Below are positions 15,399 through 41,354 of a stretch of 64,000 bases of DNA, one piece after another (positions within the stretch are counted from its first letter, which is position 1; each line of letters starts with the position of its first letter). A program made the position numbers and the translations under genes. Source of the stretch: a virus (taxonomy: Duplodnaviria > Caudoviricetes); the IMG/VR virus record IMGVR_UViG_3300006153_000003; one strand, written 5' to 3'. The notes under the pieces are model-generated. The model saw nothing but the letters and a program-made list of their open reading frames with translations, ran no database searches and was not told the origin of the DNA.

Positions 15399-16427
15399 AT
15401 GGCTAATGCAAAAAATGCTAAGAATGCTAAAGACTTTTTAGTTAGTACGGCTGATTTCTCATTGTTTTATAATGATGTATTGGTGTGTACTGGTAACACA
15501 AACCTTAACGCATCAATTGAAGTGACAATGCAAGAACAAAATGTTAACGCAGGTAAAGGTAATAAATTGCTTTATTCTTACAAATATGGTAGGGAACTTG
15601 CGGTTACTCTGGAAGCCGCCGACTGGAAAATAGAGTATATTGCTGCGCAGAGTGGGACAAAGATTACAGAAGGTTTGAGAGATGCCTATGAAATGGCAAA
15701 GTGTATTACTATCGTAGATGGTGTCGGTATACTTCCTTCTGTTCCAATTGGTGATGTTGCAGTCGAATTAGCAGACGGGACTATTGTAACTGTAAAAGCT
15801 GAGGGCACTACTATTGACTTAACAAAATTTGGAGTTGTAAAGGGAACTGTAAAAGTTACATATCAGTACAAGAGAATTGCAAAATCCATTGTTATTGATG
15901 CTGAAAGTTCTCCAGATGTTTATAAACTTGTACTTGTTGCAGATAAGCACAATAACAAGATTGGTAAGGTTGGTAGCGTTCAGATCGTAATTCCTTCCTA
16001 TCAACCGAGTGGTAACTTTACCATTAACTTTACGCCGGATGGAGTAACAAGCGTGAATATTGATGGTAAAGCCTTGGCAGTCGAAGGTGATACTTGTGAG
16101 GATGGATCTGGTGTATATGCTTACATCTATGATTTTGAAGAGGAGACTACTACTTTCCATATCACTGAACTTGCTGCTACCCCAGCTACAATCGAATTAA
16201 CTACTGCAGGCGCTACCCAGGAGATCTCCGTTATTGGTTTGAAGGGGGTTATGTATAATCCAATTGAGCTTGAGAATACGGAATGTACTTTTGTGAGCGA
16301 CAATCCCGAGATTGCAACGGTGGATGAATCTGGAGTTGTTACCGCAGTTGTGGCCGGATCCACAAAGATCACTGTAGCATACAATGGCGTTGAGGATGAG
16401 GTTGATGTCCAAGTAACTACGGAATAA
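15399..16427 (+). CDS. Major tail (tube) protein with C-terminal Ig-like (Big_2) domain
   Basis: SDNPEIATVDESGVVTAVVAGSTKITV Big_2 signature; synteny. Confidence 0.8.
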   Translation: MANAKNAKNAKDFLVSTADFSLFYNDVLVCTGNTNLNASIEVTMQEQNVNAGKGNKLLYSYKYGRELAVTLEAADWKIEYIAAQSGTKITEGLRDAYEMAKCITIVDGVGILPSVPIGDVAVELADGTIVTVKAEGTTIDLTKFGVVKGTVKVTYQYKRIAKSIVIDAESSPDVYKLVLVADKHNNKIGKVGSVQIVIPSYQPSGNFTINFTPDGVTSVNIDGKALAVEGDTCEDGSGVYAYIYDFEEETTTFHITELAATPATIELTTAGATQEISVIGLKGVMYNPIELENTECTFVSDNPEIATVDESGVVTAVVAGSTKITVAYNGVEDEVDVQVTTE

Positions 16428-16489
16428 ACGATAAAATAATACGGTAGATGGTTGAAACATATCATCTACCGATAAATACGGAGGTATTC

Positions 16490-16738
16490 ATGGAAGAAAC
16501 AAAAGGAGTTCTGGAAGAAATCACAGAAGAAGTTCTTCCTCGGAAACCCAAAAGAACTAATGGCTTTAAAATAAAAAAATGCAGAGTTCTTTCCTATAAT
16601 AAAGCAACGAAGGACTTAGATATACTATTTGATCAATACGGTATCCGGATTCATGATGCGGTGGATCCCCAGGATGATATGGTTGAAATCAAATACAAAG
16701 GTACTATAGGGAAACCCAACTTTGCTTATAAGATGTAG
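16490..16738 (+). CDS. Hypothetical phage protein
   Basis: GGAGG RBS supports start at 16490. Confidence 0.5.
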   Translation: MEETKGVLEEITEEVLPRKPKRTNGFKIKKCRVLSYNKATKDLDILFDQYGIRIHDAVDPQDDMVEIKYKGTIGKPNFAYKM

Positions 16739-16928
16739 GTGCATAATGTGTAAGAATGCATATGAAAAAAAATCTGAACGTACAAAGAAAAAGATGATAT
16801 TCTGCAAATTGAAAGGAAATGATGCAACTCTATCTCAGTTATGCATCAGCCAACGTTTCTGTTCAGAAAAAGATAAATATATTCCAAATAATCAAAAAGG
16901 AAATTGTAAGTATTATGAGTGTAAATAG
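16722..16928 (+). CDS. Small Cys-rich hypothetical protein
   Basis: ORF within the operon; true start probably ~16746. Confidence 0.45.
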   Translation: MLIRCRCIMCKNAYEKKSERTKKKMIFCKLKGNDATLSQLCISQRFCSEKDKYIPNNQKGNCKYYECK

Positions 16929-16974
16929 ATTAGTGTATATGAATGGGTAAGATATATGGACTAATCTATTTTAG

Positions 16975-17205
16975 TTGTATGTCTTACCCATTTTTTTACG
17001 AAATGAGGTGATGACAATAAATGAAGTAAAAATAGATCCTGAATACAATTGCGTTTGGGCAGAGGAATATTCATATCTTTCTGACCACGGAATTAAATAT
17101 ACATTTGTAAAAACTGTAAATGGTGTTACTGTATGGAAATACCGTAAAAATGAACGATTGTTTAAAACATTGGCAGATTTTTATAAAAATGTTTATTACA
17201 GATAA
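16975..17205 (+). CDS. Small DUF5659-like protein, paralog of 11542..11739
   Basis: Clear similarity to 11542..11739; RBS GAGGTG at 17005 puts the start near 17011-17017. Confidence 0.6.
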   Translation: MYVLPIFLRNEVMTINEVKIDPEYNCVWAEEYSYLSDHGIKYTFVKTVNGVTVWKYRKNERLFKTLADFYKNVYYR

Positions 17206-17230
17206 TTATTTTAGGAAGGAGTAATTATAT

Positions 17231-17620
17231 ATGAATGAAGTATTAAAAGGAATTGATTGGGCACAGGTAATTTCTACTCTTTGGACTGTTGTGCTATTAC
17301 CAATCATTACATATATCGGTACACAGGTCGCCAACTATGCAAAAGCAAAGAAAATTGATAAGTATACAAATATTCTTTATCAGAATGTTGTAGATGCTGT
17401 TAAAGATGTATACCAGGCATATGTTGAAAATCTCAAAGGAACCGCTGGCTGGGATGATGAAACCAAGGAAGGTATGAAGGAACTGGCAAAAACAAAGACC
17501 ATTCATGCTCTAACTACATCCATTTATCAGTCTCTTAAAGCCGCAAACAGTGATTTTGACGAATATCTTGATAGTCTAATTGAAACAGCAATTTATGATC
17601 TTAAGAGAGCTAACGTATAA
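17231..17620 (+). CDS. Putative holin
   Basis: N-terminal TM helix, AVKDVYQAYVENLK motif like LL-H-type holins. Confidence 0.6.
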   Translation: MNEVLKGIDWAQVISTLWTVVLLPIITYIGTQVANYAKAKKIDKYTNILYQNVVDAVKDVYQAYVENLKGTAGWDDETKEGMKELAKTKTIHALTTSIYQSLKAANSDFDEYLDSLIETAIYDLKRANV

Positions 17621-17626
17621 TGTAAA

Positions 17627-18151
17627 GTGAGGATTAAAATGGAACCGATAGCAGAATTAACTACCATAGACTACTCTTCTCTTTTCATTGCTTCTTTTTC
17701 TGTCCTTATTGGTATAAAGGCTATCGTCTCTCTTTTCGAATGGATATTTGACAAGTTAGGACTTGAAACAAAATGGATGCGTAAAAAAAGAGAGGAACGT
17801 GAATTATTGATACAGACTTCCCAAGGACTTAATAAATTGCAAGAAAAGCATGAAGAAGATATAGAAAGATCTGATAGGCGAGACGAAAAGATTTCCAATG
17901 ATATTGAAAAACTCACTCAGATGTTCATTGATAAAGAAATTGATGATATGCGCTGGGAAATCAATAATTTTGCAATAAGAGTATCTGAAGGCAAACCTTG
18001 TAATAAGGATAGTTTTCAACATTGTATTCATATTTATGAAAAATATGAAAAAATACTGGAAGAAAATAGCCTCGAAAACGGTGAAGTTGAAATATCAATG
18101 GAATTAATCAATGAAGCATACAAACAAAAATTGAAAAACGGAGACTTTTAA
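17627..18151 (+). CDS. Membrane-anchored coiled-coil protein (holin-associated)
   Basis: N-terminal TM segment, coiled coil, ENGEV motif. Confidence 0.5.
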   Translation: MRIKMEPIAELTTIDYSSLFIASFSVLIGIKAIVSLFEWIFDKLGLETKWMRKKREERELLIQTSQGLNKLQEKHEEDIERSDRRDEKISNDIEKLTQMFIDKEIDDMRWEINNFAIRVSEGKPCNKDSFQHCIHIYEKYEKILEENSLENGEVEISMELINEAYKQKLKNGDF

Positions 18152-18249
18152 ATGAGCGGTTTCCATGTGGAATCGCTCTTTCATATAAGCTTCTTTGTCT
18201 GAGTGTCAATGGATTCAGACAAGGGAGTTTATCGGGAGGGAAGAGGTCA

Positions 18250-18717
18250 TTGAACTTCTCTCCCACTTCTTATAGAAAGGAAGCAAAAATTATCAAACTC
18301 ATTATAGACAATACTGTTGTGGATAAATATAATAAATATTATTTTTCTCTTCATCCACGAGCAAAGAAGAAAGCTATTGAACATCCCTATCATCCATCCA
18401 TAAATACTTGGATGATTTTACCCAGAATTCAAATGAATGCATTAAAGCAAAAATGGAAAGAGTTTATAGTTTTCTGGATTCATGAAATTGGATTAGAAAA
18501 TAAAAGACTTGAAAGTTTTGAAATGATATTTACCACATATATGCCAACTAAGCGCAGAATCGACTGCGATAATACAGTTCCTAAGTTCATTTTAGATGGA
18601 TTTAGTGAAGCTGGATTTATTGTGGATGACGATGGGAAACATCTAAAGTCACTTACTTTAAGAACTGGATATGATAAATATAATCCAAGAACAGAAATAG
18701 AGGTTATTGAAATGTAA
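18250..18717 (+). CDS. RusA-like Holliday junction resolvase
   Basis: RRIDCDN..PKFILDG...AGFIVDDD and NPRTEI motifs; likely ATT start at 18289. Confidence 0.8.
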   Translation: MNFSPTSYRKEAKIIKLIIDNTVVDKYNKYYFSLHPRAKKKAIEHPYHPSINTWMILPRIQMNALKQKWKEFIVFWIHEIGLENKRLESFEMIFTTYMPTKRRIDCDNTVPKFILDGFSEAGFIVDDDGKHLKSLTLRTGYDKYNPRTEIEVIEM

Positions 18718-18902
18718 TGTACTCTTATGAAATATCAAAATTATTAGAAAAACATAATCGCTCTCTCCCAGCATCTTTATATATCAATATGATTCAATCT
18801 TCTCCTCAGATAAATCACACAAAATATAATCCATATGGAAATTATTACGAATCTTGGGATACTCAAGGTGCTTATTGGAAGTATTCTATATATAAAGAGT
18901 AA
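18717..18902 (+). CDS. Hypothetical protein
   Basis: Coupled to the previous gene by overlapping TAATG. Confidence 0.5.
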   Translation: MYSYEISKLLEKHNRSLPASLYINMIQSSPQINHTKYNPYGNYYESWDTQGAYWKYSIYKE

Positions 18903-19017
18903 TTTGATTTAATAGTCATAAAAAATTTACATAATTTTGCAGAAAAACTCTTTACTCTTCTCTTAATGAATGGTATTCTTTATTATATCATTTCAAACTA
19001 TGAGGAGGTCATTGAGA

Positions 19018-19268
19018 TGGCAAGAAGAAAAGTTGAAGAGAAAAATTATGATGAATTAATTGAAATGTCAACTGAAAGAATTGAAGAATTGAAAGAAGAA
19101 TTGAAGCAGGAGAAAGCAAACCTGAAACAGTTGCAAAAGGACAAGATCAGGTACGAAGCTTTTGCTGAGAAACAGAAAAAGGAAGAAGAAATTAAGAAAG
19201 CTGCAGAATTGCTTGTATCATCCGGAAAGAGTCTGGAAGAAATCGAAGCCTTTTTGCAGGCAGAATAA
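19018..19268 (+). CDS. Small charged coiled-coil protein (moron-like)
   Basis: GAGGAGG RBS before ATG 19018; own terminator downstream. Confidence 0.6.
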
Positions 19269-19290
19269 TTAAAAATGTCGATGATATATA

Positions 19291-19320
19291 GGATCTGTCT
19301 TTATGGACAGGTCTTTTTTA
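19291..19320 (+). terminator. Rho-independent terminator
   Basis: GATCTGTC/GACAGGTC stem followed by a T-tract. Confidence 0.6.
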
Positions 19321-19351
19321 TTGTAAATACTTGATTTGGAGGAATTTATAA

Positions 19352-20086
19352 ATGGTAAAAAAAGATGTAAAAATAAAAGAATATATAAATATAGAAGAAA
19401 AAGCAATCATCACAAATCATTTGGTTGATTCCTATTTTGTAGAAAGACTTGATGGAACTATCGGTTATACTCCATATATGGTTGACGTTGCATTAGTAAC
19501 TGCATTTTTCTTATACTGCGTTGAAGGTATTAAATTTGACGAAGAAGAAAATATTTATAATACCGTAGTTTCTGATAAAGAACTTATGGACCTGTATACT
19601 ACTACCCTATCAGTACAGCTTGATAATGATGAACACCCAAATATTAAGATAGTTAGAGAAATCAACTCCATTATGAGAGACGTTGCCGATATGGTTGAAT
19701 TCAGAAAACAGCAGATTGTACATAATAATTCTGTTCTGAATGATAAATTGCTTGAAATTCTGGATATGCAGAAGCAAGTAGAATCCTTAAGGTTGGAAAT
19801 TGCTGAGAACGAGAACAAATTGTTACAGCAGCAATATAAGCAAAACGTATACAATGAAAAAGTGATGAGTCATATGACCCCAGAAGAAACGGCTGAGTTG
19901 AATCGAAGAATGCTAGATGAGAATATGGATTTTGGTAAATTAGCTGAGTTAGTAACTGAGAAATTTATTCACAGCGATATTCACACTTCAAATGTTGTTG
20001 AGATGAAACCTGCTCAAAAAAGAAAACCTGGGAGACCTAAGAAGTCTACGAGTACCGGCGCTATAAAGGAAACAATTAAAAAATAA
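19352..20086 (+). CDS. Probable tail assembly chaperone-like protein
   Basis: Synteny; basic RKPGRPKK tail. Confidence 0.4.
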   Translation: MVKKDVKIKEYINIEEKAIITNHLVDSYFVERLDGTIGYTPYMVDVALVTAFFLYCVEGIKFDEEENIYNTVVSDKELMDLYTTTLSVQLDNDEHPNIKIVREINSIMRDVADMVEFRKQQIVHNNSVLNDKLLEILDMQKQVESLRLEIAENENKLLQQQYKQNVYNEKVMSHMTPEETAELNRRMLDENMDFGKLAELVTEKFIHSDIHTSNVVEMKPAQKRKPGRPKKSTSTGAIKETIKK

Positions 20087-20484
20087 TGGGTGGAGTATTC
20101 AAAAATATGGCCTCTTTGGTGAACGCATTGCAGGCCGAGATGAGAGAAGCTATGGAAGAGGTGACTGAAAAATCTCTTAAAGATGCAGATAATGAAATGC
20201 AGGTTTTTGATGATGGTGGAACTCCTGATCGTTACGATAGAGTTTATAATTATGAGAATTCTCCCGATACACATGGTGTTTCTGGATCCGGCAATGTTGT
20301 AGATTCTGATATTTATCTTAATGATGGTTACGATTATTATACAGGAACTTTTTCCACCCCAGAAGTATTCAAAGCTGCTGAATCTGGAAGTTATGGAATT
20401 GTGGGTACACCAGGAACATGGGCAAGAATAGAAGAAGATATTCAGCAGAATATAGATAACAGCTTCGGGAAGAGATTTAATTAA
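20086..20484 (+). CDS. Putative tail component (HK97 gp10-like)
   Basis: Size, P.RYDR motif, synteny. Confidence 0.4.
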   Translation: MGGVFKNMASLVNALQAEMREAMEEVTEKSLKDADNEMQVFDDGGTPDRYDRVYNYENSPDTHGVSGSGNVVDSDIYLNDGYDYYTGTFSTPEVFKAAESGSYGIVGTPGTWARIEEDIQQNIDNSFGKRFN

Positions 20485-20652
20485 ATAAAAGACGAATTTC
20501 AACCGCATATGATTAGGAAGCGTTCCCCCAAGAATCTGACAGCGATTACGCTTCCTCATCCAAATTTACTGCCAGAGATTACATGGATATAACAATGAAC
20601 ACAAAGTCTAACATTCTTGACCGCATTTTAAATGTTATCCTCTGCATGTACT

Positions 20653-20681
20653 ATTTTATCATAGGATAAATATGTATGCAA
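20653..20681 (-). promoter_or_regulatory. Sigma-A-like promoter facing leftwards, antisense to the late operon
   Basis: TTGCAT-N17-TAAAAT with extended TG on the minus strand. Confidence 0.5.
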
Positions 20682-20727
20682 TTATTATAGAACGACTTAT
20701 TTCGACATATAACCACTACTCTTTTAT

Positions 20728-20744
20728 CTCATCTAAATGGCAAT
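20728..20744 (+). repeat. Shufflon crossover site CTCATCTAAATGGCAAT
   Basis: 17-mer identical at 20728(+), 21970(-), 30490(-), 32610(+). Confidence 0.9.
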
Positions 20745-21485
20745 ATGGATACATTAAAATGTGTCACAGCAGGAGGAATGGCTGCTGAAGGATGGTATCG
20801 AGTATATGAAGCTACTGTAGCAGTTTCAAGCATTTCTGGTTTTGGGTCAGGTGGCGATAATGGGATAATTTTTATTTCTACGAATTACAACTATTCTTCT
20901 CCGATGTCTTGCATATTATTATATACAGTGGAATATGGCGGCATTATCCATTGGAACTGCATATCTTGTTCCTCAAATAATGATGTTAGAATTATTGACA
21001 AAATTCGCTTTAGTCTTATTCCTGGATCTAAAGTATCTATTGATATACACTATCGCACATCAAATAATAACAACTTTGAAATCAAACTCATCTCCAATAG
21101 ATTTGGGAAAAAATTCCATCGATTGGAAAATGCGCAGCCTATCACAGATAATCCGTTAACAATCTCTGAGTATGATATTCCAGTGACCTCTGATCTGGAT
21201 GTTGAAAGAACCGTGTTTATAGAAGGCGGGATCTGGTATAAAACAAATAAGTTTGTTTTGATTTCTTTGAATAAAACCATTACAAAGGATACCGGAGGAT
21301 GGAATACGTTATCTTCAGCTATACCAACCGCAAAAGAACAATGCTTTGCACCATACTTGTCTGCGGATTTAGGAGTACAAGGAAATTTAATGGTTATTAA
21401 TAACTCATTACAAATAGATATTCCAAGCGCTGCGATTGGTAAGACATTCACCGTTAGAGGGCAGATAATGTATAGGTTAGCATAG
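20733..21485 (+). CDS. Silent tail-fibre C-terminal cassette E (remote shufflon pair)
   Basis: Begins in frame at CTAAATGGCAAT (L-N-G-N), no RBS; contains the TSDL junction. Confidence 0.8.
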   Translation, partial: LNGNMDTLKCVTAGGMAAEGWYRVYEATVAVSSISGFGSGGDNGIIFISTNYNYSSPMSCILLYTVEYGGIIHWNCISCSSNNDVRIIDKIRFSLIPGSKVSIDIHYRTSNNNNFEIKLISNRFGKKFHRLENAQPITDNPLTISEYDIPVTSDLDVERTVFIEGGIWYKTNKFVLISLNKTITKDTGGWNTLSSAIPTAKEQCFAPYLSADLGVQGNLMVINNSLQIDIPSAAIGKTFTVRGQIMYRLA

Positions 21486-21489
21486 GGCT

Positions 21490-21981
21490 TTATACAGGAT
21501 ACTTAAAGAAACGAACTCTAACACGTTGCGAAACAGTAGAATATATGTACCATACTCCAACATCCCGAAATACGTGATCCATAACGGAATTGTCATCAAA
21601 ATGTGACATAACAACCGGAATATAATTATCACTATTCGGAGCGTCTGATATACGAACAAAAGAACCGCCTGTCGTAACCACAATACAGTCAACATAGCTA
21701 AAATCAGAGTTTGTGATATAGATTCTCCATCCTGCCCAGTCACTACCATTATAGAAATTAAACGCCAATGGGGCACTATCAATACCAAATAAAGCTACAA
21801 CTATAGAAGTGGGTGATCGTTTCAAAATAACCGCACTTCCATATTTATAACTATTATTTGGCAAATCGTCGCTTAAGTAGCTGGAACCGGATAAAGAATA
21901 TGCGAAAAAACCAATAGGTAGCTTAGTTGCCTTAAGTAAAACACTTTCACTTATCATAACATTTCCGATATTGCCATTTAG
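21490..21981 (-). CDS. Silent tail-fibre C-terminal cassette F (remote shufflon pair)
   Basis: Starts at the LNG site, ends FFKYPV like the expressed fibre; clearly paralogous to cassette D. Confidence 0.85.
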   Translation of the reverse strand, partial: LNGNIGNVMISESVLLKATKLPIGFFAYSLSGSSYLSDDLPNNSYKYGSAVILKRSPTSIVVALFGIDSAPLAFNFYNGSDWAGWRIYITNSDFSYVDCIVVTTGGSFVRISDAPNSDNYIPVVMSHFDDNSVMDHVFRDVGVWYIYSTVSQRVRVRFFKYPV

Positions 21982-21986
21982 ATGAG
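21970..21986 (-). repeat. Shufflon crossover site (inverted)
   Basis: ATTGCCATTTAGATGAG is the reverse complement of the 20728 site. Confidence 0.9.
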
Positions 21987-22045
21987 AAGACAAACATTCT
22001 TTTTGCCATACTATAGCCTAAAAATTACGAAAGGAATTCAAACAA

Positions 22046-22222
22046 ATGAATACAACTAATGAAACTGTTACTATTTCGAATGAGCAGCAGTTAAATTCAA
22101 AAATAATTGATGTGATTATTGATATTTTAGCAAATAATAATTTATCTATTGCTGATGCAAAAAATATTCTATATGTAACATCAAAAAAATTATCTCAGCA
22201 AAAAGTTAAATCTTCTTTATAA
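22046..22222 (+). CDS. Small hypothetical protein (58 aa, not in the ORF track)
   Basis: GAAAGGA RBS, MNTTNETVTISNEQ...; 3' end overlaps the convergent gene. Confidence 0.5.
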   Translation: MNTTNETVTISNEQQLNSKIIDVIIDILANNNLSIADAKNILYVTSKKLSQQKVKSSL

Positions 22223-22496
22223 TTTGACTTAACTTCTGTGATATATTTTCTAGTTCACTTCTAATCTCCCATGATTCGGTTTGGTCGCTCCCTGTATTAG
22301 AATTAATATTTTTGAGTTCCTTTTCAATATTCTCCAAATAATCTTTCGGAGAATGTTCATCAAAACCATCTGATTGAATATTTCTTATTGCGTCCATAAT
22401 ATTACAATTTTCCGGATCCCCATCATCAAAACAATTATTATTAAAAATGCATTCACTTACACATTTCCCGTTAACAAAAGGGCAGAATGATTCCAT
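22206..22496 (-). CDS. Cys-rich hypothetical protein (moron)
   Basis: FCPF...C...C N-terminus, GAGGT RBS, AT-rich upstream region. Confidence 0.6.
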   Translation of the reverse strand: MESFCPFVNGKCVSECIFNNNCFDDGDPENCNIMDAIRNIQSDGFDEHSPKDYLENIEKELKNINSNTGSDQTESWEIRSELENISQKLSQIIKKI

Positions 22497-22677
22497 ATAA
22501 AAATACCTCTTTCAAAATTTTATAATATTATTATATAACAATACACCATATTTTCCATATAATTTTTATTTGCTAAGCGAATAAACAAGATTATTTCATG
22601 TGTAGGAGAAAAAGATTAACAATCACTCCTACTATTTTTATTATAAAATTCAAGAATAAAAGGAGTACATAAAATAT

Positions 22678-22935
22678 ATGAACAACACTAAAACAATTGA
22701 ATTGCTGCGAAAACGGAATACTCAACTACAAGAAGAACTTGACCGATTAAAGGAATTAAACACGAAACATTCCGACAAACCAGAAGATAAGAAAATTTCA
22801 GAATTAATCGCTGACCTAGAGAACATTCGCAAAGAATGGATGAATGTTTTGGAAGAATTAAATCATGATCGAGAAGAATACTGTAAATTATTAGAAGACT
22901 TACATACTATTCGAGAAACATTCAAAATGATATAA
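22678..22935 (+). CDS. Coiled-coil hypothetical protein
   Basis: AAGGAG RBS. Confidence 0.55.
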   Translation: MNNTKTIELLRKRNTQLQEELDRLKELNTKHSDKPEDKKISELIADLENIRKEWMNVLEELNHDREEYCKLLEDLHTIRETFKMI

Positions 22936-22959
22936 GAATAAAATTTCACAGGAAAAGAG

Positions 22960-23766
22960 GTGATAAATATGATTGCAATGGATTTTGAATATGATGGTGA
23001 ATATTTAAAAAATTACGGATTTACAATCTGTAGTATAAATGAAAATGGTTTCAATACCATCACTACGGATTCACAGGCAACTTTTAATAATGTAAAATTA
23101 ATGAATGGTAAACTATTTGAAATTACTACTTCTCAGTATGAAGATCGTTTGGAAATCAATTTCCAAATATGCAAGTATACTTCCGGCCATAAATTACATC
23201 CTATTTCCCATTACGAGGCAAGAGAATTAAAACGTTGGTTAAATAGACCTACCTTTAAGAGATTTAAGTTTATACAGCCTTACTGGGCAGATATTTATAT
23301 GGAAGGAAGCTTTAATGTAAAGAATATAGTATGTGGTGGAGAAATCTTTTTACTAGAACTAACTTTCATTAGTAATCATCCCTTTGCACTACACGAACCT
23401 ATCACCCATAGGATATTCACCTCTGCTACTAACGAATCTTATACTTTTTTTGACACATCAGATGAGATCGGATATATATACCCAGACATAAAAATCACTT
23501 GTCTGCAAAACGGGAAATTAGAAATAACCAATTCTAACGAAAATAGGATTACCGAAATAAAGAACTGCTCATCTGGTGAAATTATACAATTCACTCCAAA
23601 ATTATTGATGTCTACTTCTCTCCCGTCCCATAAGATTCAAAACGATTTCAATTATAAGTTTTTCAGAATATCTAACTCCTATAACAATCGTAAGAATACT
23701 TTAACTTTCTCACTTCCTGTAGAAGTAGAAATAACATATTGTCCTTATGTGAAGGTGGTGATGTAA
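22960..23766 (+). CDS. Distal tail protein (Dit)
   Basis: DFEYDG N-terminus, size, position before Tal. Confidence 0.7.
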   Translation: MINMIAMDFEYDGEYLKNYGFTICSINENGFNTITTDSQATFNNVKLMNGKLFEITTSQYEDRLEINFQICKYTSGHKLHPISHYEARELKRWLNRPTFKRFKFIQPYWADIYMEGSFNVKNIVCGGEIFLLELTFISNHPFALHEPITHRIFTSATNESYTFFDTSDEIGYIYPDIKITCLQNGKLEITNSNENRITEIKNCSSGEIIQFTPKLLMSTSLPSHKIQNDFNYKFFRISNSYNNRKNTLTFSLPVEVEITYCPYVKVVM

Positions 23767-23767
23767 T

Positions 23768-26700
23768 ATGGCAATAAAGATAAATTTTGATAGTGCTGGC
23801 AGACCAGAAATCCCCACATTCATACTTTCTGAGAAAAATGGAGATCATGTAGGTGTATTAAGTACAGTATCTCAAATTCACACTATAGGTAATTTAAATT
23901 CTTTTTCTGAATTTTCCTTTTCTATATATAAAGTATTAAACGAAGAAAAATGTGAATTCTGGGATGATATAGATAATTTCCATATCATGTATATTCCAGA
24001 ATGGGATAAATGGTTTGAAATTTATGTAGAAATAGATGAAAAAGATAGTTGTGTAAAAAATGTAACAGCTAAAACTATCCAAGAAGCTGAATTATCTCAA
24101 ATTTTACTGTTTGATATAGAAATAAATACAGAAAAAGATATAGAGAAGGATGATTATGTTCCTACTGTTCTATTTGAGCACAATAATGCAAAAGCTTCCT
24201 TATTACATAGATTGCTGGCTGATAAGGCACAGCACTATAAGATAATTCATGTTGATAGCACTATAGCCAAGAAACAACGGAGTTTTAGCTTTAACAATAT
24301 CTCTATTCATGATGCATTCCGTGAAATCTCTGAAGAACTTCACTGTTTATTTGTTTATGGTGAAGATAGTGGTTCAGAAGGAATCCCAAGAACAATTTCT
24401 GTATATGACCTAGAATCGAATTGTAATAAATGTGGCTACCGTGGAGAATATATGGGTATATGTCCAGAATGTGGTAGTCTGGATATTGATGAAGGGTACG
24501 GCGAAGACACTACTATCTTTGTATCAAATGAAAATTTGGCAGAAGGTGTTACCTTTTCAACAGACACGGATTCTGTAAAAAATTGTTTCCGTCTTGAAGC
24601 TGGTGATGATGATATGACAGCAGCAATTGTAAATATAAATCCTTCTGGTACACGATATATCTGGTATTTCCCAGATTATATGAAAAAACGTATGTCAAAA
24701 GGGCTTGTAGAGAAAATAGATTCTTTCAATACTCAATTAATCTACTATGAAAAGTCTTATCAGGAAAACTTGAATGCAACGATATTAAGCAACTATAATC
24801 AACTTATTGATAAATACCGGACTTATAAAAACACTTTGGAGAATATATCAGTCCCGATTACAGGATATCATAATTTGATGAAGATCTATTATGATATCAT
24901 AGACTTTAAAGGATATCTGCAAAATTCCCTGATGCCTAATATAGAAATATCAGAAACGAGTGTCACACAGCAAGCAGGTTTATTGACGGCAGGCAATCTC
25001 TCTCCTGTTTCTGTTGAGAACACATCCTATATTTCCCTGGCAACCGCTAATAGCGTGATTTTGTCATATGCCAAGGTTTTTATAGACACAGCAAAATACA
25101 AGGTAAAAGTAAAATCATCTAGTTTGACAGGAACTACTTGGACAGGTAATTTTACAGTTGTTAGCTATACAGACGACGAAGATACTGCTGACAGTCGTAC
25201 TATCACCATACAGATCAATGATAATTATGAGAATTTTGTAAAGCAAAAAATAGATAAGATTCTTACGAAGGAAAATGAAGATATCAGTATTATCGGATTG
25301 TTCAAGAAAACTGATGTAAATTTCAAAAATGATTTGAAGAAGTATAGCTTATCTTGTCTTCAGGTCATACATGATGCTTGTCAGGCATGTTTAGACATAT
25401 TGATTGAGCAAGGTATCTCAAACATGAAATCTGATTTATATGAAAAAATATATAAACCGTACAGAGATAAGCTAACCTATATCGAACAGGAAATTAAAGT
25501 GCGTGAATCAGAGATTGCCATCGTTGACGCAATTTATGATAAAGATGGTGATGTCGTAGCAGATGGCATGAAATCACTTATACAGAAAAAACGCAGAGAA
25601 ATTTCTAAAATTCTTGATTTCAAAAAGTATCTTGGAGATTACTGGAATGAATTTTGTTCCTTTAGACGTGAGGATTTGTGGAAGAATACTAACTATATTT
25701 CAGAAGGTTTGGACAATGCACAGCTATTCAAACAGGCAAAAGAATTCCTGGAATCAGCAAAAAAGGATCTCATTAAATCAGCAACACAGCAGCACAGCAT
25801 CTCTACTACCCTTAAGAATCTTTTAGTAATGGAAGATTTCAAACCTCTTGTCGAACATTTTGCAGTAGGAAACTGGTTAAGAATCGGTGTTGATGATAAA
25901 GTTTACAAACTTCGCTTGATTTCTTATGAGATTGATTATGAAAATCTTGATACTATTACTGTTGAATTCTCTGATGTCGTAGACGCATTTGGATTAATGA
26001 AAGATATTGAAGATATACTGAATCAGAGCCAATCCATTTCCAACTCCTATGATTCTGTAAAACACCAGGCTGAAGAGGGAGACAAGGCAAATGGTAGGTT
26101 GAAAGGATGGGTTGGTAAAGGGCTTGAAGCCACTACTATCAAAATCATGAATAACGCCGATGACCAAGATTATGTTTTTGACCGTCATGGAATGGTTTTC
26201 AGAAAAAAGGATCCTGATACGGATACCTACTCTCCTGTCCAAGTGAAAATCATAAATTCCACTATTGCTATGACCACTGATAATTGGATGACTTCTAAGG
26301 TCGCTGTCGGAGAATATATTTACCTGGATCCACGAGACTGGAAATATAAAACCGGATATGGGGTAATTGCTGATACTTTGATTGGTAATCTCATTCTTGG
26401 TGAAGAGGTTGGTATTTATAATGATAAAGGAACCATGACCTTCAAAGAAGATGGTCTGACGGTCACGAATGGCATTAATACTTTCCAGGTAAATCCAAAT
26501 TCCAAGACACTTTTGACTCTCTCCCATAATGATAGGAGGATTCTATACGTGGATGAGACTGGCGAATTGCATATTGAAGGTGACGGTTCTGCTCTTGATA
26601 TCACAGCTAATGGTACAGTGGAAGGCATGAATACTAAGATAACTCAGAATGCAAAAGCTATTACATTAGAGGCCAATCGTGCATCAGAAGCAGAAGGAAA

Positions 26701-27286
26701 ATTGTCAGCTTCTATTGAAGTAAATGCAAACGCTATTACTCAAAGGGTACAAAAAGATGAATTTGGTTCATACATGGAGCAGAATTATGAGAGCTTTTTG
26801 ATTGGATTTAATAAAAGTAGCAAGGTAATTCAGATAACCGATGGAGAAATCGCTATCTATGATAATTCCAAAACCAATAGTAAAAAGCGTGCAAGTTTCG
26901 ATGAACGTGGCAATAGTTTTTGGCGAGATGGTTATCGTATTGGTACAATAGGTACGAATAAATTAAAAGACTATCCATCAAAAAAAGGACTAGATTTTGA
27001 CCTGGAAACAGATGGTGCTTATATGACGTGGGCCTATAGAAATAAAACCGATGATGATGTTTATACCATGAAATGGACATATGCTGCTGAAAACTATGGT
27101 GATTATGCTGCTGATATGTTACATGCGGGGTGTGATATAGATATGCATAATTTCAATATATATAACGCAAAAATCTCAGAAGGATCTGTTAAATTCAATC
27201 TTCCAGGTATTACAGATATATTTGAAGCTGGCGGTATACGATGGAATTTCCAGAAAGGAAGATTAGTTGATGCAGCAGTCGTATAG
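23768..27286 (+). CDS. Baseplate hub/tail spike protein (Tal-like, prophage tail)
   Basis: Follows Dit; LRLISYEIDYENL..VEFS and YGVIADTLIGNLILGE motifs of SPbeta-like tail proteins. Confidence 0.75.
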   Translation: MAIKINFDSAGRPEIPTFILSEKNGDHVGVLSTVSQIHTIGNLNSFSEFSFSIYKVLNEEKCEFWDDIDNFHIMYIPEWDKWFEIYVEIDEKDSCVKNVTAKTIQEAELSQILLFDIEINTEKDIEKDDYVPTVLFEHNNAKASLLHRLLADKAQHYKIIHVDSTIAKKQRSFSFNNISIHDAFREISEELHCLFVYGEDSGSEGIPRTISVYDLESNCNKCGYRGEYMGICPECGSLDIDEGYGEDTTIFVSNENLAEGVTFSTDTDSVKNCFRLEAGDDDMTAAIVNINPSGTRYIWYFPDYMKKRMSKGLVEKIDSFNTQLIYYEKSYQENLNATILSNYNQLIDKYRTYKNTLENISVPITGYHNLMKIYYDIIDFKGYLQNSLMPNIEISETSVTQQAGLLTAGNLSPVSVENTSYISLATANSVILSYAKVFIDTAKYKVKVKSSSLTGTTWTGNFTVVSYTDDEDTADSRTITIQINDNYENFVKQKIDKILTKENEDISIIGLFKKTDVNFKNDLKKYSLSCLQVIHDACQACLDILIEQGISNMKSDLYEKIYKPYRDKLTYIEQEIKVRESEIAIVDAIYDKDGDVVADGMKSLIQKKRREISKILDFKKYLGDYWNEFCSFRREDLWKNTNYISEGLDNAQLFKQAKEFLESAKKDLIKSATQQHSISTTLKNLLVMEDFKPLVEHFAVGNWLRIGVDDKVYKLRLISYEIDYENLDTITVEFSDVVDAFGLMKDIEDILNQSQSISNSYDSVKHQAEEGDKANGRLKGWVGKGLEATTIKIMNNADDQDYVFDRHGMVFRKKDPDTDTYSPVQVKIINSTIAMTTDNWMTSKVAVGEYIYLDPRDWKYKTGYGVIADTLIGNLILGEEVGIYNDKGTMTFKEDGLTVTNGINTFQVNPNSKTLLTLSHNDRRILYVDETGELHIEGDGSALDITANGTVEGMNTKITQNAKAITLEANRASEAEGKLSASIEVNANAITQRVQKDEFGSYMEQNYESFLIGFNKSSKVIQITDGEIAIYDNSKTNSKKRASFDERGNSFWRDGYRIGTIGTNKLKDYPSKKGLDFDLETDGAYMTWAYRNKTDDDVYTMKWTYAAENYGDYAADMLHAGCDIDMHNFNIYNAKISEGSVKFNLPGITDIFEAGGIRWNFQKGRLVDAAVV

Positions 27287-27309
27287 ATAAACTGGAAAGG
27301 GGAAATATC

Positions 27310-27498
27310 ATGGCCAATATAAATAAAAACGAAGGCAGAGCTTATATTATGCCAAAAGGTACTCCTGTAAATATAGAAGAATCACCTTCTTTAAATGGAC
27401 AAGTACCCACCTATTCATTAGAGATGAATTTATTAAAAGAAGTCAATCAAAAATTAGATTTATTACTCACATCACTAAAAATATCAATAAAGGAGTAA
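27310..27498 (+). CDS. Hypothetical tail-region protein
   Basis: RBS, operon position. Confidence 0.5.
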   Translation: MANINKNEGRAYIMPKGTPVNIEESPSLNGQVPTYSLEMNLLKEVNQKLDLLLTSLKISIKE

Positions 27499-27506
27499 TC
27501 TTTAAT

Positions 27507-27731
27507 ATGGAAAAACCATTACTTTTAGTACGCGAAGAGTTTATGAGCGATCTGGCAGATTTGATTAATCAATCACGTCTGCCTTTTGTTATTATAGAGC
27601 CTATATTAGAGAAATTTTTAGAAAATGCCAGAGGTGCTATCAAACAGCAATTATCGGATGAAAAATTTCGATACGAAAAATATTTAAAGGAAAAGGAAAA
27701 AGAAGAATCAGGAAAAAATTCTGATGAGTAA
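27507..27731 (+). CDS. Hypothetical tail-region protein
   Basis: KPL...REEF...L..LIN.S.LP motif common in tail modules. Confidence 0.55.
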   Translation: MEKPLLLVREEFMSDLADLINQSRLPFVIIEPILEKFLENARGAIKQQLSDEKFRYEKYLKEKEKEESGKNSDE

Positions 27732-27803
27732 AATATATAAAGCTCTTAGTTTCGTCTAAGGGCTTATTTTTATGGATTCTCAAGCAATTATGCATTTGCT
27801 TGT

Positions 27804-28844
27804 GTGTCCAGGAAAGGAGTCAGGATGATACAGCAAAATGGATATCTAGCAGTACAACATATACGGGTTCGTATCAATCATAATATCATCAGCACTGTTA
27901 ATCTGGTTCAAGGTGACACAGCCCGTGAATTTCATTTTTTCTTTGACGACTACATCATCCCAGAAGGTGCAGAATTTCGTATTTATATTCGTAAACCGTC
28001 TGGTTGTGAAATATATAGTCATTGCTACTTACGAAATGATGAAATCGTTGTGCAACCCACTTTACAAATGGTTGCCGAAAAAGGACAGAACTTAGGTCAG
28101 ATACAAATTATAAAGGATGACAAATTGCTTAACACTTTCGTCTTCTATCTTGCTATCGAAGAAAATCTTATCTTCTCCTCCTCTATTACTTCTTCAAACG
28201 AATTCGATCTAATCAATGATTTCATAGATACTGCAAGGCGGTTAATCCCAGAAATAGAAAAAACACTTGCAGATGCCCAGGAGCAAGAAGCTAAACGAGA
28301 GGATTCAGAGAATGATAGAAAAAATAATGAACTGGTCAGAATTCTTAATGAAGATGAACGAGTAAATAATGAAAATACACGTATAGCTAATGAAATTATA
28401 CGAAATGAAAACGAAGAAGTCCGGAAAGCAAATGAGATTGAACGTCAAAAAAATACAGGCATTGCCATAAAAGAAGCCAATACTGCCAGAGATAAGGCAA
28501 ACGAAGCTACTAAGAATGCAAATGACACTGCTCAAGACATAAAAGATAAATTAGCTAATGGTGAATTTAGTGCAAGTATCCACGTAGGTGATGTAACAAC
28601 TGGAGATGCTAGCAGCGAAGTCGAAATCACAAATACTGGCACGGCTAAAGATGCTGTATTTAATTTTAAAATCCCCAAAGGAGATACAGGTGAAAGTGGT
28701 ATCACTACTCCCATCAGCGGTTTTCTCTCTTTATCGGTAGATGATTTAGGCAATCTATATGTACATTACAATGATGAACCCGAAAATCAAGAATTTGAAT
28801 ATGATCCGGATACCGGAAGTTTATATTATATCACACCAGATTAA
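27804..28844 (+). CDS. BppU-family upper baseplate protein
   Basis: VQGDTARE...YIRKPSG BppU_N motif; NE..R heptad repeats; FKIPKGDTG. Confidence 0.75.
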   Translation: MSRKGVRMIQQNGYLAVQHIRVRINHNIISTVNLVQGDTAREFHFFFDDYIIPEGAEFRIYIRKPSGCEIYSHCYLRNDEIVVQPTLQMVAEKGQNLGQIQIIKDDKLLNTFVFYLAIEENLIFSSSITSSNEFDLINDFIDTARRLIPEIEKTLADAQEQEAKREDSENDRKNNELVRILNEDERVNNENTRIANEIIRNENEEVRKANEIERQKNTGIAIKEANTARDKANEATKNANDTAQDIKDKLANGEFSASIHVGDVTTGDASSEVEITNTGTAKDAVFNFKIPKGDTGESGITTPISGFLSLSVDDLGNLYVHYNDEPENQEFEYDPDTGSLYYITPD

Positions 28845-28867
28845 TAAGAAAGGAAGGATGATAATAT

Positions 28868-29920
28868 ATGGGAAAAGTATTAATTGGAAATATTAAGGGA
28901 CCTCAAGGACCAACCGGCGTAAGAGGCGGTATGTGGTTACAGGGAACTGCAGTTACAGGTACAAGTACAGAAGAAACTTCATTTCCTGATTCAAATATCA
29001 CTTACGCAATTATCGGAGACGCTTATTTTAACGTAGAAACGTGTAATGTATATGCATGTACTAAAGCCGGAAATCCAACTGATGCAAAGTGGGTTTATAC
29101 TGGGAATATTAAAGGTGTAAAAGGTGACACTGGTAGCACACAATCAATTCAGAATGCGGTTCTTGAGTTTAATGAAGCTCTTACTCGCGAAAATATTGAA
29201 TCAACTGATACTGTTGAGACAATCTTTGGAAAGGTTAAGAAATATTTTACAGATTTAGGCTCTGCTGCTTTTATGAATGTTGTAAATAATGTCACTCAAT
29301 CAGAAGCAGGACAAGCGGTACTTGATGCTGCTGTCGGAAAATACCTTGAAGAGAAAAAGTTTGATATAAGTAAAATTATAGCAAATCGAAACATCACAGA
29401 ACCCGGATTTGTTATGGATGGCAAAACCGTTGCCGACGCTCTTACTGAGCTAAATGGCAAATTCGCAGTAACAATTATAGAGGGGGACTTGTTTGAATAT
29501 GCGGAATTGTTACCTGTCGGATTCTATACGTTTGGAGCAAATGCAAATACGACTAATGTTCCGGACTCCCCATCTGCTGGATGTATTATAAAACGCACAT
29601 CCTCACATATTTCCATTATTCTTGTGGCATATGGAACTGGAAAATATTATTGCGTTGAATATGGTGGTAATTGGCGAAAGTGGAACAAATTAGTACTAGA
29701 CTCTGATTTAGAAGTAATTTCATTTTCCCAAGAGATTATAGCCGATACAGCTACAGCATTAAGTTCAGCTCCACAAAGTAAACAATATATACCTGTCGTA
29801 ACTACAGTATCAGGAACACCGAGATATGCGGGAAGTTTTTGCTTTACATCCGGCTCATGGTATTTTACAGCTAATAATACACAAAGGTATGGATTTGCTT
29901 TTTATAAGTATCCTGTATAA
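28868..29920 (+). CDS. Tail fibre/receptor-binding protein: constant N-terminus plus currently expressed cassette A (29450-29920)
   Basis: Collagen-like GNIKGPQG start; crossover CTAAATGGCAA at 29450-29460; ends FYKYPV. Confidence 0.85.
   Translation: MGKVLIGNIKGPQGPTGVRGGMWLQGTAVTGTSTEETSFPDSNITYAIIGDAYFNVETCNVYACTKAGNPTDAKWVYTGNIKGVKGDTGSTQSIQNAVLEFNEALTRENIESTDTVETIFGKVKKYFTDLGSAAFMNVVNNVTQSEAGQAVLDAAVGKYLEEKKFDISKIIANRNITEPGFVMDGKTVADALTELNGKFAVTIIEGDLFEYAELLPVGFYTFGANANTTNVPDSPSAGCIIKRTSSHISIILVAYGTGKYYCVEYGGNWRKWNKLVLDSDLEVISFSQEIIADTATALSSAPQSKQYIPVVTTVSGTPRYAGSFCFTSGSWYFTANNTQRYGFAFYKYPV
29441..29460 (+). repeat. Shufflon crossover site inside the expressed fibre gene
   Basis: CTTACTGAGCTAAATGGCAA versus CTTACTCATCTAAATGGCAA at 32606. 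Confidence 0.88.
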
Positions 29921-30015
29921 GAGGAGATCCCATGATTTCAGCGAAAGGAAATAGAAAACCGAATTCACAGCATCTTTATAATATTGTTACAAGATAATGA
30001 GTTGATTTTCGTAAT

Positions 30016-30501
30016 TTACGCCGGATACTTGTAAAAACGAATAGTCATATTTTGTTCAGTAGGTGATATCACAAGCCACGAATTTGCGCCCCGATTTCCA
30101 TAAACTGAAACGCCTGTATAATCACTACTTACTCTTAATACAACAGGGATATAATTCATGCCTGTTATGTTGGGGACATAGTTATTGCTACCACGGACAG
30201 TATCCATTGTGACATCCGTATAGCCTAAATCAGAGGTTAGAACATATGGAATCCATGTAACTTCTTGTTCTCGATTAATCATTGAACCTGAGTACAACCG
30301 AGAAGGAATATCTAATAGTCCAGTATACACAATTGCCAAGAAATATGAATCTCCAGCAAAATATCCAGGTCTAGAATATCCGAGGGTTCTAATAATAACA
30401 CCGTAATTCCCTGGAAAATTTCCGCCAGAATTTTTCCATTCGCCTATACTCCATATTTTGAACGAATTTCCCCTAGATATAGTATTTATATTGCCATTTA
30501 G
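30016..30501 (-). CDS. Silent tail-fibre cassette B
   Basis: Open frame from the LNG site (LNGNINTISRG...) to FYKYPA; TSDLG junction. Confidence 0.88.
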   Translation of the reverse strand, partial: LNGNINTISRGNSFKIWSIGEWKNSGGNFPGNYGVIIRTLGYSRPGYFAGDSYFLAIVYTGLLDIPSRLYSGSMINREQEVTWIPYVLTSDLGYTDVTMDTVRGSNNYVPNITGMNYIPVVLRVSSDYTGVSVYGNRGANSWLVISPTEQNMTIRFYKYPA

Positions 30502-30506
30502 ATGAG
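30490..30506 (-). repeat. Shufflon crossover site (inverted)
   Basis: ATTGCCATTTAGATGAG. Confidence 0.9.
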
Positions 30507-30607: not shown

Positions 30608-31267
30608 ATGATTTCTACAAAAGATATGGCATTTTATTATCCTAATGGTGAAGAAATCAAAAAAGAAATATTTTTAGATTTCTATAGTAAATGCTATTAT
30701 ATGAATAATAATGTTTTTGTCGAAGATGAGATTGAGAAATTATTAGATAAAGGTAAAAATAATTTGACAGAAGAGGATTTGTTTAATATTTTAGCTTGGA
30801 AGATTGGGAAGATTAATCACAAAAAATCCAATCCAGATGATGGTATAATATATTATAAGGATTGGAACAAAGAACTTTTAGAAGCTAAAATATATAAAGA
30901 TTCATTGGACAAAGAGTTTTTTTCTTGCATTAAAAAAAGTTTATTAGAAATTAATGGTGAAGAATTGATCGATTATATAAACAAATTGAAAGATATAAAT
31001 CATCTAGGACCAGTGTATATTGTCACATTGAGATATTTTTCAACAAAAGGGAAATATCCAATTTATGATAGATTTGCATATAAAGCAATACAAGCCATTT
31101 TAAATAATCATATTCCTTTTGATTTAATTCCTGAAAAAAATACATTAAATAAAAACATTAATGATATATATAATGAATATTTAAAAAAATTACAAAATAT
31201 TTTTCCAGAGAATTTTAGCGAACGAAAAGTTGACCAAGCATTGTGGGTTTATGGACATTTATTTTAA
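30608..31267 (+). CDS. Moron inside the shufflon; possible HhH/OGG-fold DNA glycosylase-like protein
   Basis: GAGGAGG RBS; ILAWK ... HLGPVY..TL..F...KYPIYDRFA..A ... RKVDQALW pattern; very AT-rich. Confidence 0.5.
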   Translation: MISTKDMAFYYPNGEEIKKEIFLDFYSKCYYMNNNVFVEDEIEKLLDKGKNNLTEEDLFNILAWKIGKINHKKSNPDDGIIYYKDWNKELLEAKIYKDSLDKEFFSCIKKSLLEINGEELIDYINKLKDINHLGPVYIVTLRYFSTKGKYPIYDRFAYKAIQAILNNHIPFDLIPEKNTLNKNINDIYNEYLKKLQNIFPENFSERKVDQALWVYGHLF

Positions 31268-31285: not shown

Positions 31286-31313
31286 TTGTCACTCAACTAA
31301 GTATCTAATATCT
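31286..31313 (-). repeat. Degenerate shufflon site; 25/28 direct repeat of 33470-33497
   Basis: TTGTCACTCAACTAAGTATCTAATATCT versus TTGCCATTTAACTAAGTATCTAATATCT. Confidence 0.7.
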
Positions 31314-31344
31314 ATATTATAATTTGATTTTTAATTCTTAAAGT

Positions 31345-31419: not shown

Positions 31420-32412
31420 TTATGCACTCAAATATTTTTTATGATGATACTGTACACTTGCTTGGTCAACAGTACAGTAAATCATAGTAGTTTCGAGTTT
31501 TGCGTGTCCTAAGAAGCGAGAAACTTCTTGTAAGGGCATTCCTCTATTCAATGCGTTAGTTGCTGCTGTCCGACGAAAACGATGTGGATGAGCGTCTTCA
31601 ACACCAGCGCGTTTGCCAATGCGTCGAATAATATCTTCTGCACCAGCTTTTGTTAATCGTTTGTTTGGTTTCCTTAATCCTACAAATAAAGCAGGGTTAT
31701 CATCATCCCGGCTATCTAAATATTCTTTCATGTACATACATGATCTGTCGTTCAAGTAAACAATTCTTTCTTTTCCTCCTTTCCCATACACGAGTAAGTC
31801 TCTTGTCATGAAATTCAAATCTTTTCTATCAAGACTTAAAAATTCACTTACTCGAACTGCTGTACTATACAAGAATTCTAACATTGCCTTATCTCTGAGA
31901 TTAGTGCAGTTTCGAGATAGTAATTCCCTTTCTTCGTCTGTGTAAGGTTTCTTTAGAATCTGTTCCACCTTGATATCTGATACGAGAACCATAGGATTTT
32001 TACGGATTCGATCACGGTCACGTAACCAGGTGAAAAAGCTATTAAAGACTGCTCGTACATTTCTTAAGGTTACATTTGCGACTTTCCGTGTTGCTTTGTA
32101 GGTTCTCATGTATCTGGATATATCACCATCTGTTATCATATCTACAGGTTTGTTGATGTATGATAACAGACGATGTAATTCATACTGGTATCGTATTGTT
32201 GTTTCTCTGGATCTGCCTTCAAGCATCTTTGCAATAATGAAATCTTCCAAGTCATCCATCCAACTGTCGTCTATAACCATTAGTTCCGTATTTTTGACTA
32301 AATCACAATCAGCAAAAGAGATTTGCATGATTTCTTTTAATTCCCCTAATTGTTTTTCATCTAAAATGTCTTGTGCTTTTCTCAATACTTCCATAATTTT
32401 TTGTTCAACCAT
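31420..32412 (-). CDS. Tyrosine recombinase (XerD-like), shufflon invertase
   Basis: Catalytic R (TAVRVSE), K (GKGGKER), HxxR (HRFR), H (LGH), Y (TTMIY); embedded among the cassettes. Confidence 0.92.
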   Translation of the reverse strand: MVEQKIMEVLRKAQDILDEKQLGELKEIMQISFADCDLVKNTELMVIDDSWMDDLEDFIIAKMLEGRSRETTIRYQYELHRLLSYINKPVDMITDGDISRYMRTYKATRKVANVTLRNVRAVFNSFFTWLRDRDRIRKNPMVLVSDIKVEQILKKPYTDEERELLSRNCTNLRDKAMLEFLYSTAVRVSEFLSLDRKDLNFMTRDLLVYGKGGKERIVYLNDRSCMYMKEYLDSRDDDNPALFVGLRKPNKRLTKAGAEDIIRRIGKRAGVEDAHPHRFRRTAATNALNRGMPLQEVSRFLGHAKLETTMIYCTVDQASVQYHHKKYLSA

Positions 32413-32609: not shown

Positions 32610-32626
32610 CTCATCTAAATGGCAAT
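32610..32626 (+). repeat. Shufflon crossover site
   Basis: CTCATCTAAATGGCAAT. Confidence 0.9.
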
Positions 32627-32944
32627 TTTATAATGATATCGGGAACTGGTGGTAGTTTAGAAGCTATAGAGGGAGTAAGTGAAATATATTTTGATGATTA
32701 TTGTAGATTTTGGCATAACAATTTTATAGGATGTGTAAGTGTTACTTTCACTAATTTTACAGAAATACCAGCTTGGCGTGGATTTATACGATTACCCTTT
32801 AAAACATATCGAGAGTGTGTGACACATCTATACGATGCACCAGACATTCAAGTGTATGCAGGTACAGGAACTGCAGTGAATACTATGTCACGCCCCATAC
32901 CTGTGGGGAAACATCATTTTGACATGGTAGTTTCACTCATCTAA
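32615..32944 (+). CDS. Silent tail-fibre cassette C
   Basis: In frame from CTAAATGGCAAT; unrelated single-domain tip without the SDL junction. Confidence 0.8.
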   Translation, partial: LNGNFIMISGTGGSLEAIEGVSEIYFDDYCRFWHNNFIGCVSVTFTNFTEIPAWRGFIRLPFKTYRECVTHLYDAPDIQVYAGTGTAVNTMSRPIPVGKHHFDMVVSLI

Positions 32945-32976: not shown

Positions 32977-33480
32977 TTACACTGGATACTTGTAAAATCG
33001 AACGCCTACGCTTTGTTCAACTGTAGAATATATTCTCCATTTGTCACTTTCCCAAAAAATATGTTCTAGGCATTCATTAGTCTTATTATGATCGAAAACA
33101 ACAGGTATGTAATTAAATGCATTTGGTGCATTGAGGATTTCAACAGAATGATCCGCAACTGTATTGAAAAAAATGTCGACATATCCTAAATCAGAGGTTC
33201 GCACATAAAACTGCCAATCTCCCCAATTAGTACCATCATAGAATTTAGTAGCTAACGGTGTAGAACCGATTCCGGTTAAAATCACTTTTATATTTGTCTG
33301 GAGTCTTTTTAAAATAATAGCGTTTCCATAAGCATAGCTAAAGTTTGGTAAATCTTCACCCTTATATCCGGCTCCACTTAGTATATACATAAAAAGCCCT
33401 TGCGCTGCAATCTCTACTGCTTTATTCAAAACACTTGTTGATAAAACGGATTCGTTTGTGCTTCCTAACTTGCCATTTAA
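32977..33480 (-). CDS. Silent tail-fibre cassette D
   Basis: In-frame TAG immediately precedes TTA AAT GGC AAG; ends FYKYPV. Confidence 0.88.
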   Translation of the reverse strand, partial: LNGKLGSTNESVLSTSVLNKAVEIAAQGLFMYILSGAGYKGEDLPNFSYAYGNAIILKRLQTNIKVILTGIGSTPLATKFYDGTNWGDWQFYVRTSDLGYVDIFFNTVADHSVEILNAPNAFNYIPVVFDHNKTNECLEHIFWESDKWRIYSTVEQSVGVRFYKYPV

Positions 33481-33487
33481 CTAAGTA
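33470..33487 (-). repeat. Shufflon crossover site (inverted, terminal)
   Basis: TTGCCATTTAACTAAGTA. Confidence 0.85.
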
Positions 33488-33647
33488 TCTAATATCTTTC
33501 TTCAATTTACACAATTTCACAGAAAATAGTACAAATGAAAGAGCAATTTCATCTGTATTATTTTCACTCATTTCAGAGTAAAACAAGGTTTTCTAGCCTT
33601 GTTTTTTTTATACCCAAAATTCAAAAAAAGAAAGGAAGAAAAATTTT

Positions 33648-41084: not shown

Positions 41085-41354
41085 CTAATATTCTTCATAA
41101 TCTATCTCACATTTTTCTTCCGGCGCTGACTTCTCTGCCTCATTGACTTTTGTAAGAGCTATATTCCTATCAAAAAATACAATTTTTTCAATATCAGTAT
41201 TATTGAAGAGATATGCCCGTTTATCTCTTTTGTCTACGGCAACAAACCAGGAATCTCTTACTGTGCGCACTATTAATTCACACACTTCATAAATCCTTGT
41301 CCTAGGAATAACCCGGGCATAATATAAACTATCTTTTCTCTTTAATCGCACCAT
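41085..41354 (-). CDS. Hypothetical phage protein
   Basis: ORF coupled to nrdG. Confidence 0.55.
   Translation of the reverse strand: MVRLKRKDSLYYARVIPRTRIYEVCELIVRTVRDSWFVAVDKRDKRAYLFNNTDIEKIVFFDRNIALTKVNEAEKSAPEEKCEIDYEEY

Follow-up and report, generated by a model that had tools for sequence, protein, structure and literature searches.

A probable distributed tail-fibre shufflon with a remote cassette pair upstream of the baseplate genes of an SPbeta-like prophage

Introduction

In the R64 shufflon, the Rci recombinase and its sfx sites in pilV vary a plasmid pilus adhesin from a contiguous cassette array, by inversion only. Gin of Mu, Cin of P1 and Min of p15B are serine invertases of contiguous segments. 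In the Rin shufflon of Bifidobacterium and Eggerthella prophages, a phage-encoded tyrosine recombinase serves a contiguous array whose rix repeat, TTCCCTAACCC, is 11 bp long (PMC6109161, PMC8778435), and Rin has been described as the first phage-encoded tyrosine invertase (PMC6109161). Isomers of the Rin array are seen between prophage and virion genomes.

Here we analyze a 64,000-nucleotide stretch of DNA (the window) from an SPbeta-like prophage of mouse-gut metagenomes. Its fibre locus shares with R64 multiple inversion, here presumably by a tyrosine recombinase, a constant 5' part with alternative 3' ends, and sites built from a conserved core, one conserved arm and one variable arm, but differs in serving a phage fibre, in having dispersed sites and in showing signs of excision or deletion. 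With Gin, Cin and Min it shares fibre C-termini chosen by DNA inversion, which changes host range, whereas its recombinase is of the tyrosine and not the serine family. In common with Rin, it has a phage-encoded recombinase of the tyrosine family and a constant N-terminal gene with C-terminal cassettes at a short asymmetric repeat. Repeat and layout set the two apart: the core here is TAAATGGCAA in place of the rix sequence, and the cassettes, instead of forming one contiguous array between the constant gene and rin, are grouped in tail-to-tail pairs. The pairs occupy three positions, and as many as five in relatives; between them lie the recombinase block, a 7.5-kb baseplate block and, in relatives, tape-measure and accessory modules. 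Tyrosine-recombinase shufflons are known, and this is a shufflon-like system with non-contiguous cassettes, a different core and signs of excision, whose split layout is unusual; we found no report of such a layout in the literature.

Results

Six sites delimit three cassette pairs

The 10-bp core occurs six times in the window, three times per strand, and the six sites delimit three cassette pairs, E/F, A/B and C/D, each arranged tail to tail. The overall order is T, E/F, baseplate block X, A/B, recombinase block Y-R, C/D, lysin. A longer 17-mer, CTCATCTAAATGGCAAT, is found in exact copies at 20728-20744 (+), 21970-21986 (-), 30490-30506 (-) and 32610-32626 (+), and with three mismatches at 29445-29461 (+), within the fibre gene. 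These five matches compare with 0.46 expected, and none of 100 shuffles gave five. The sixth exact copy of the core lies at 33470 (-). Two features of shufflons are thus present, namely several sites in both orientations with a common core, and a constant 5' part in frame with alternative 3' cassettes at a site. Contiguity of the cassettes with the expressed gene is absent: E/F lies 7.5 kb upstream and C/D lies past the recombinase block. What had been called the main array shares its sites with E/F, as proposed, but is itself split by the recombinase block.

All six cassettes, read from the core, are open in one L-N-G(N/K) frame. Site 1 (20728..20744, core 20734-20743, +), whose left arm is non-coding DNA past the last tail gene (132 aa), heads cassette E (20733..21485, +), which is silent and encodes 250 aa from L-N-G-N. 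Facing it is cassette F (21490..21981, -; 163 aa from L-N-G-N, also silent), headed by site 2 (21970..21986, core 21971-21980, -), whose left arm lies beside ORF58. The flanking arms of sites 1 and 2 comprise 20 nt and are 100% complementary. Site 3 (29445..29461, core 29451-29460, +) lies inside the expressed fibre gene (28868..29920, +), in which constant residues 1-194 are fused to cassette A and the left arm, ACTGAGC, is coding. Cassette B (30016..30501, -; 161 aa, silent in the window) is headed by site 4 (30490..30506, -), and the 109-aa cassette C (32615-32944) by site 5 (32610..32626, +). Cassette D (32977..33486, -; 167 aa) carries the core of site 6 at 33470-33479 and has an in-frame TAG directly upstream. 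The left-arm sequence of site 6 (33470-33502) has an 85% copy at 31286-31318, after a 219-aa gene, in which the core has decayed, and is repeated in inverted orientation at 29976-30005, between the ends of A and B; these extra copies may be relics of former sites.

Cassettes A, B, D and F have a common C-terminal motif, F(Y/F)KYP(V/A); C and E, with 22-33% identity, represent other types. F and D are 49-50% identical, in agreement with the earlier reading of F as a paralog of D. Over its C-terminal 100 aa, E shares 81% identity with the tip of a different 436-aa fibre, P0149, in which this part comes after an L-N-G-N junction. Across contigs, copies of E/F (99.6-100% identical) adjoin nine different left arms.

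Block X and the recombinase block

Block X (21987..29444, +) occupies the interval between sites 2 and 3, 7,470 bp from core to core. It begins with ORF58, ORF96 (on the minus strand) and ORF85, followed by a DUF6558 Dit-like gene (22960-23766), a 1172-aa protein (23768-27286), two small ORFs and a 346-aa fibre-like protein (27804-28844), and it ends with the constant part of the fibre gene, which starts at 28868. The Dit-like, 1172-aa, 346-aa and fibre genes therefore all lie downstream of E/F, in line with the first-pass annotation, whose gene names Tal and BppU are provisional.

The recombinase block lies between sites 4 and 5 and encodes a 330-aa tyrosine recombinase (31420..32412, -). Its sole Pfam family match is Phage_integrase (1.1e-39), and alignment to XerA/XerC-like structures finds the catalytic R, K, HxxR, H and Y all present. 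The best NCBIfam match is XerA-like (216.6 bits against a cut-off of 220), and no Rci-specific model is among the matches. From these sequence features, the protein is a candidate for the invertase of the shufflon. Protein Y (30608..31267, +; 219 aa), which stands beside the recombinase in every relative, had no match in Pfam or NCBIfam, and an Atlas feature search gave a weak OGG-like lead (14% of one cluster). The Y-R block occurs in both orientations across assemblies. In the relatives L015-L018, an IS110 transposase is found within the recombinase block.

The split layout in other assemblies

A Logan contig from run ERR2497918 (L030), built by a different assembler, is 100% identical to the window over 11,633 nt (window 18868-30500). 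Relatives at ~90% DNA identity (L015-L018 and L066, from mouse-gut metagenomes) have a pair immediately before the Dit gene and further pairs downstream of the fibre, and some relatives have up to five cassette pairs. The split layout, which the first-pass annotation had suggested looking for in related phages, therefore recurs, with a pair kept at the same place. Beyond these assemblies, megablast against a phage collection gave no match; in IMG/VR and GTDB the constant region has only distant relatives (40-59% identity), none with the core; 16-mer site scans of IMG/VR returned lone matches in unrelated contigs, which we take as chance; and a JGI metagenome scan for the left arms of sites 1 and 2 returned a single unrelated match. 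A distant fibre relative in Diplocloster hominis (L011:10388-11447) has 13-nt repeats in both orientations just after its constant part, which may be an independent fibre inversion system.

Exchange between remote and expressed slots

Protein searches with the fibre recovered the constant region, at 96-100% identity, with at least 10 different C-termini. An identical constant region is joined to A, B, D, F, c4, c11, c12 and other tips, and cassette B is expressed in P0009. Protein P0004 consists of constant residues 1-194 (100%) followed by F (100%), and in its contig, L014, window 28832-29460 is continued by 21990-21275 in reverse. In L028, from a related lineage (protein P0120), the order is constant::F, E, recombinase, so that the whole E/F pair occupies the proximal slot. 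Cassette B adjoins the ORF58 arm (site 2) in L058, a contig 99.7-99.9% identical to the window. Another pair, c2/c3, occupies the remote slot in L061 and L063; in L074 it stands in the proximal slot, with constant::c2 as the expressed form. The copies of this pair show 99.6% identity, and the portion of the block that the contigs have in common is 100% identical. With constant::F contigs, B at the remote slot and c2/c3 in both slots, the earlier proposal that E/F and the main array are parts of one shufflon is borne out, and on this sequence evidence the remote pair takes part in the shufflon. Of the two fusions that had been predicted, constant::F was recovered in both P0004/L014 and P0120/L028, and constant::E was not found in protein and fusion searches, which yielded only P0149, a different fibre sharing the distal domain of E.

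Inversion isomers

Natural isomers that differ from the window by inversion between sites, with breakpoints at the core, are seen in L070, L032 and L054, and E/F is flipped in place between L032 and the window and between L025 and L022. L070, a 69-kb JGI contig, is 99.99% identical to the window over X and 9.4 kb downstream, and reads constant::D, C, Y-R unchanged, B, A. This arrangement is the exact product of inversion between sites 3 and 6 followed by inversion between sites 4 and 5. The isomer that a single inversion would give, in which the recombinase is flipped, is found in L015-L020, L054, L056, L071 and L074 and is the commoner state in relatives. By contrast, the inverted Dit-to-fibre block predicted by the first-pass annotation was seen in none of the 18 assemblies that span it, all of which keep it co-directional with the upstream module, with the proviso that consensus assemblies hide minority isomers. 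Because X was never found inverted but Y-R occurs in both orientations, an inverted X would be at most transient or counter-selected. The related suggestion that such inversion switches tail expression on and off gains no support from these 18 assemblies, and a promoter and terminator scan of 19300-23800 performed no better than shuffles and is therefore uninformative on this point.

Possible excision products and missing modules

Other arrangements suggest recombination between directly repeated sites. The two ends of L058 (JGI 3300006155, 8,597 nt) overlap by 77 nt, so that the contig forms a circular path of 8,520 bp, which contains constant::A, B, the ORF58 arm and block X and closes at the junction of B with the ORF58 arm. 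Recombination between sites 2 and 4, which are direct repeats, would yield such a product, and L058 is a candidate excised circle or, alternatively, a tandem duplication.

In full-length relatives the order is T, pair, G, pair, Tad2 segment, pair, X, pair, Y-R, pair, lysin. G denotes a module of ~11 kb with a tape-measure gene (2012 aa, or split into 1319 + 658 aa), and the Tad2 segment an accessory block of 9.5 kb that includes a Tad2-like gene; each of the two is flanked by the same shufflon sites. Other genomes are without G, the Tad2 segment or both, with the breaks at sites; the junctions observed are T/X in the window, G/X in L054, T/Tad2 segment in L032 and G/Tad2 segment/X in L076. No tape-measure gene or homologue is present in the 64-kb window, the interval 16448-22960 from the tube gene (15399-16427) to the Dit-like gene included, and the G and Tad2 segment modules that relatives carry between T and X have no homologue in it either. 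From its gene content, the window looks like a site-to-site deletion form. Because of the 8,520-bp circular path and the whole modules missing between sites, the data suggest that excision between sites also occurs. Module order varies as well: in one sample (L079:1-12405, compared with L076) the Tad2 segment runs straight into the tape-measure module with no pair between, the reverse of the order in the 154-kb contig type.

Discussion

We propose, with a probability of roughly 60%, that this locus is a distributed tail-fibre shufflon with a tyrosine recombinase, in which the remote pair is moved most likely by nested inversions. E/F would be a reserve pair, and only the copy joined to the fibre constant region at site 3 would be expressed. 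The recombinase at 31420-32412, presumably the enzyme responsible, would recombine any two oppositely oriented sites, so that pairs flip in place and the recombinase block flips. The remote pair could reach the expressed slot by an outer inversion spanning pair, block and pair, probably followed by an inner one restoring the block. An inverted baseplate block, if the block ever inverts, would be a short-lived or counter-selected intermediate. The first-pass annotation had put forward two nested inversions of this kind; the product of such a route is seen for A/B and C/D across Y-R in L070 and, by analogy, supports a similar swap of the remote pair across the baseplate block. In three comparisons (F in the window versus L014, F versus L028, and c2 in L061 versus L074), it is the cassette nearest ORF58 that becomes joined to the constant region, which is exactly what the inversion route would give directly. 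Less easily accommodated are the L058 circle, which fits excision between direct repeats better than inversion, the presence or absence of whole modules between sites, the absence of constant::E, and the co-directional block X in 18 of 18 assemblies.

Several of these observations would be natural if remote and proximal pairs were exchanged by excision and re-integration, or by unequal exchange between genome copies at direct repeats, with the block and one pair leaving as a circle and re-entering at another site. The block would then never invert, as observed; the circular path of L058, with its 77-nt overlap, would be an intermediate; and module content would vary with breakpoints at sites, as in the window, L054, L032 and L076. 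We nevertheless regard this route as unlikely to be the principal one. Its direct product would be a fusion of the constant region to the (+) cassette of the upstream pair (E or c3), and the fusions found carry F and c2 instead; the arrangement in L070 would take four steps as opposed to two by inversion; and the L058 circle could come from a mixture of isomers in the assembly graph. Still less probable, in our judgment, is that E/F is a stranded relic in a prophage left defective by a site-to-site deletion of the tape-measure module and an accessory module, and that the exchanges record rare evolution or inter-phage recombination and not ongoing switching. This would fit a window without a tape-measure gene or the T-X modules of its relatives, the full-length relatives reading T, G (with the tape-measure gene), Tad2 segment, X, and the fact that all of the evidence compares one sample with another. 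Against it, genomes that are 99.9-100% identical in their flanks differ only at the cores, the Logan contigs L059 and L057 break off at precisely sites 2 and 3, suggestive of within-sample branching, and the recombinase sequence is intact.

That the position of E/F is an assembly artefact of the repeats, an outcome the first-pass annotation had allowed for, is very improbable, and we reject it. In favour of an artefact are the repetition of the sites and the length of the pairs, which at 1.2 kb exceed short reads. Against it, the sequence common to sites 2 and 3 is only ~11 nt long and that common to sites 2 and 4 ~22 nt, below assembly k-mers; L030, produced from another run with another assembler, shows no difference over 11.6 kb; and a pair is retained upstream of the block in at least 18 assemblies.

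The preferred reading, a distributed shufflon shuffled mainly by inversion, may be extended. The sites bracket the tape-measure, 9.5-kb accessory, baseplate and recombinase modules, and it is possible, although we hold the idea tentatively, that the recombinase also excises, inserts or deletes modules of 8-20 kb together with one pair, as circles. If so, the system would be a shufflon-integron hybrid that restructures the phage and yields prophages without a tape measure like that in the window.

More broadly, the host range of gut phages is set by fibre tips, and this system keeps at least six tips in store, and many more exist in the population, all for a constant region that remains identical. 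Because some of the tips are kept at a distance from the expressed gene, essential structural genes fall inside potentially invertible or excisable segments, an arrangement unexpected from Mu, P1, p15B, R64 and Rin. A system of distributed sites would account for the missing tape-measure gene in the window, and short-read assemblies of such phages can show one isomer among many.

Other mobile elements lie elsewhere in the window. Beyond the lysis genes are a second tyrosine recombinase (35879-37108; 409 aa), probably the prophage integrase, and a DDE transposase (39268-40584). The anaerobic ribonucleotide reductase gene nrdD (41986-45309), with NrdG downstream at 41342-41977, is interrupted by an intein with a LAGLIDADG homing endonuclease.
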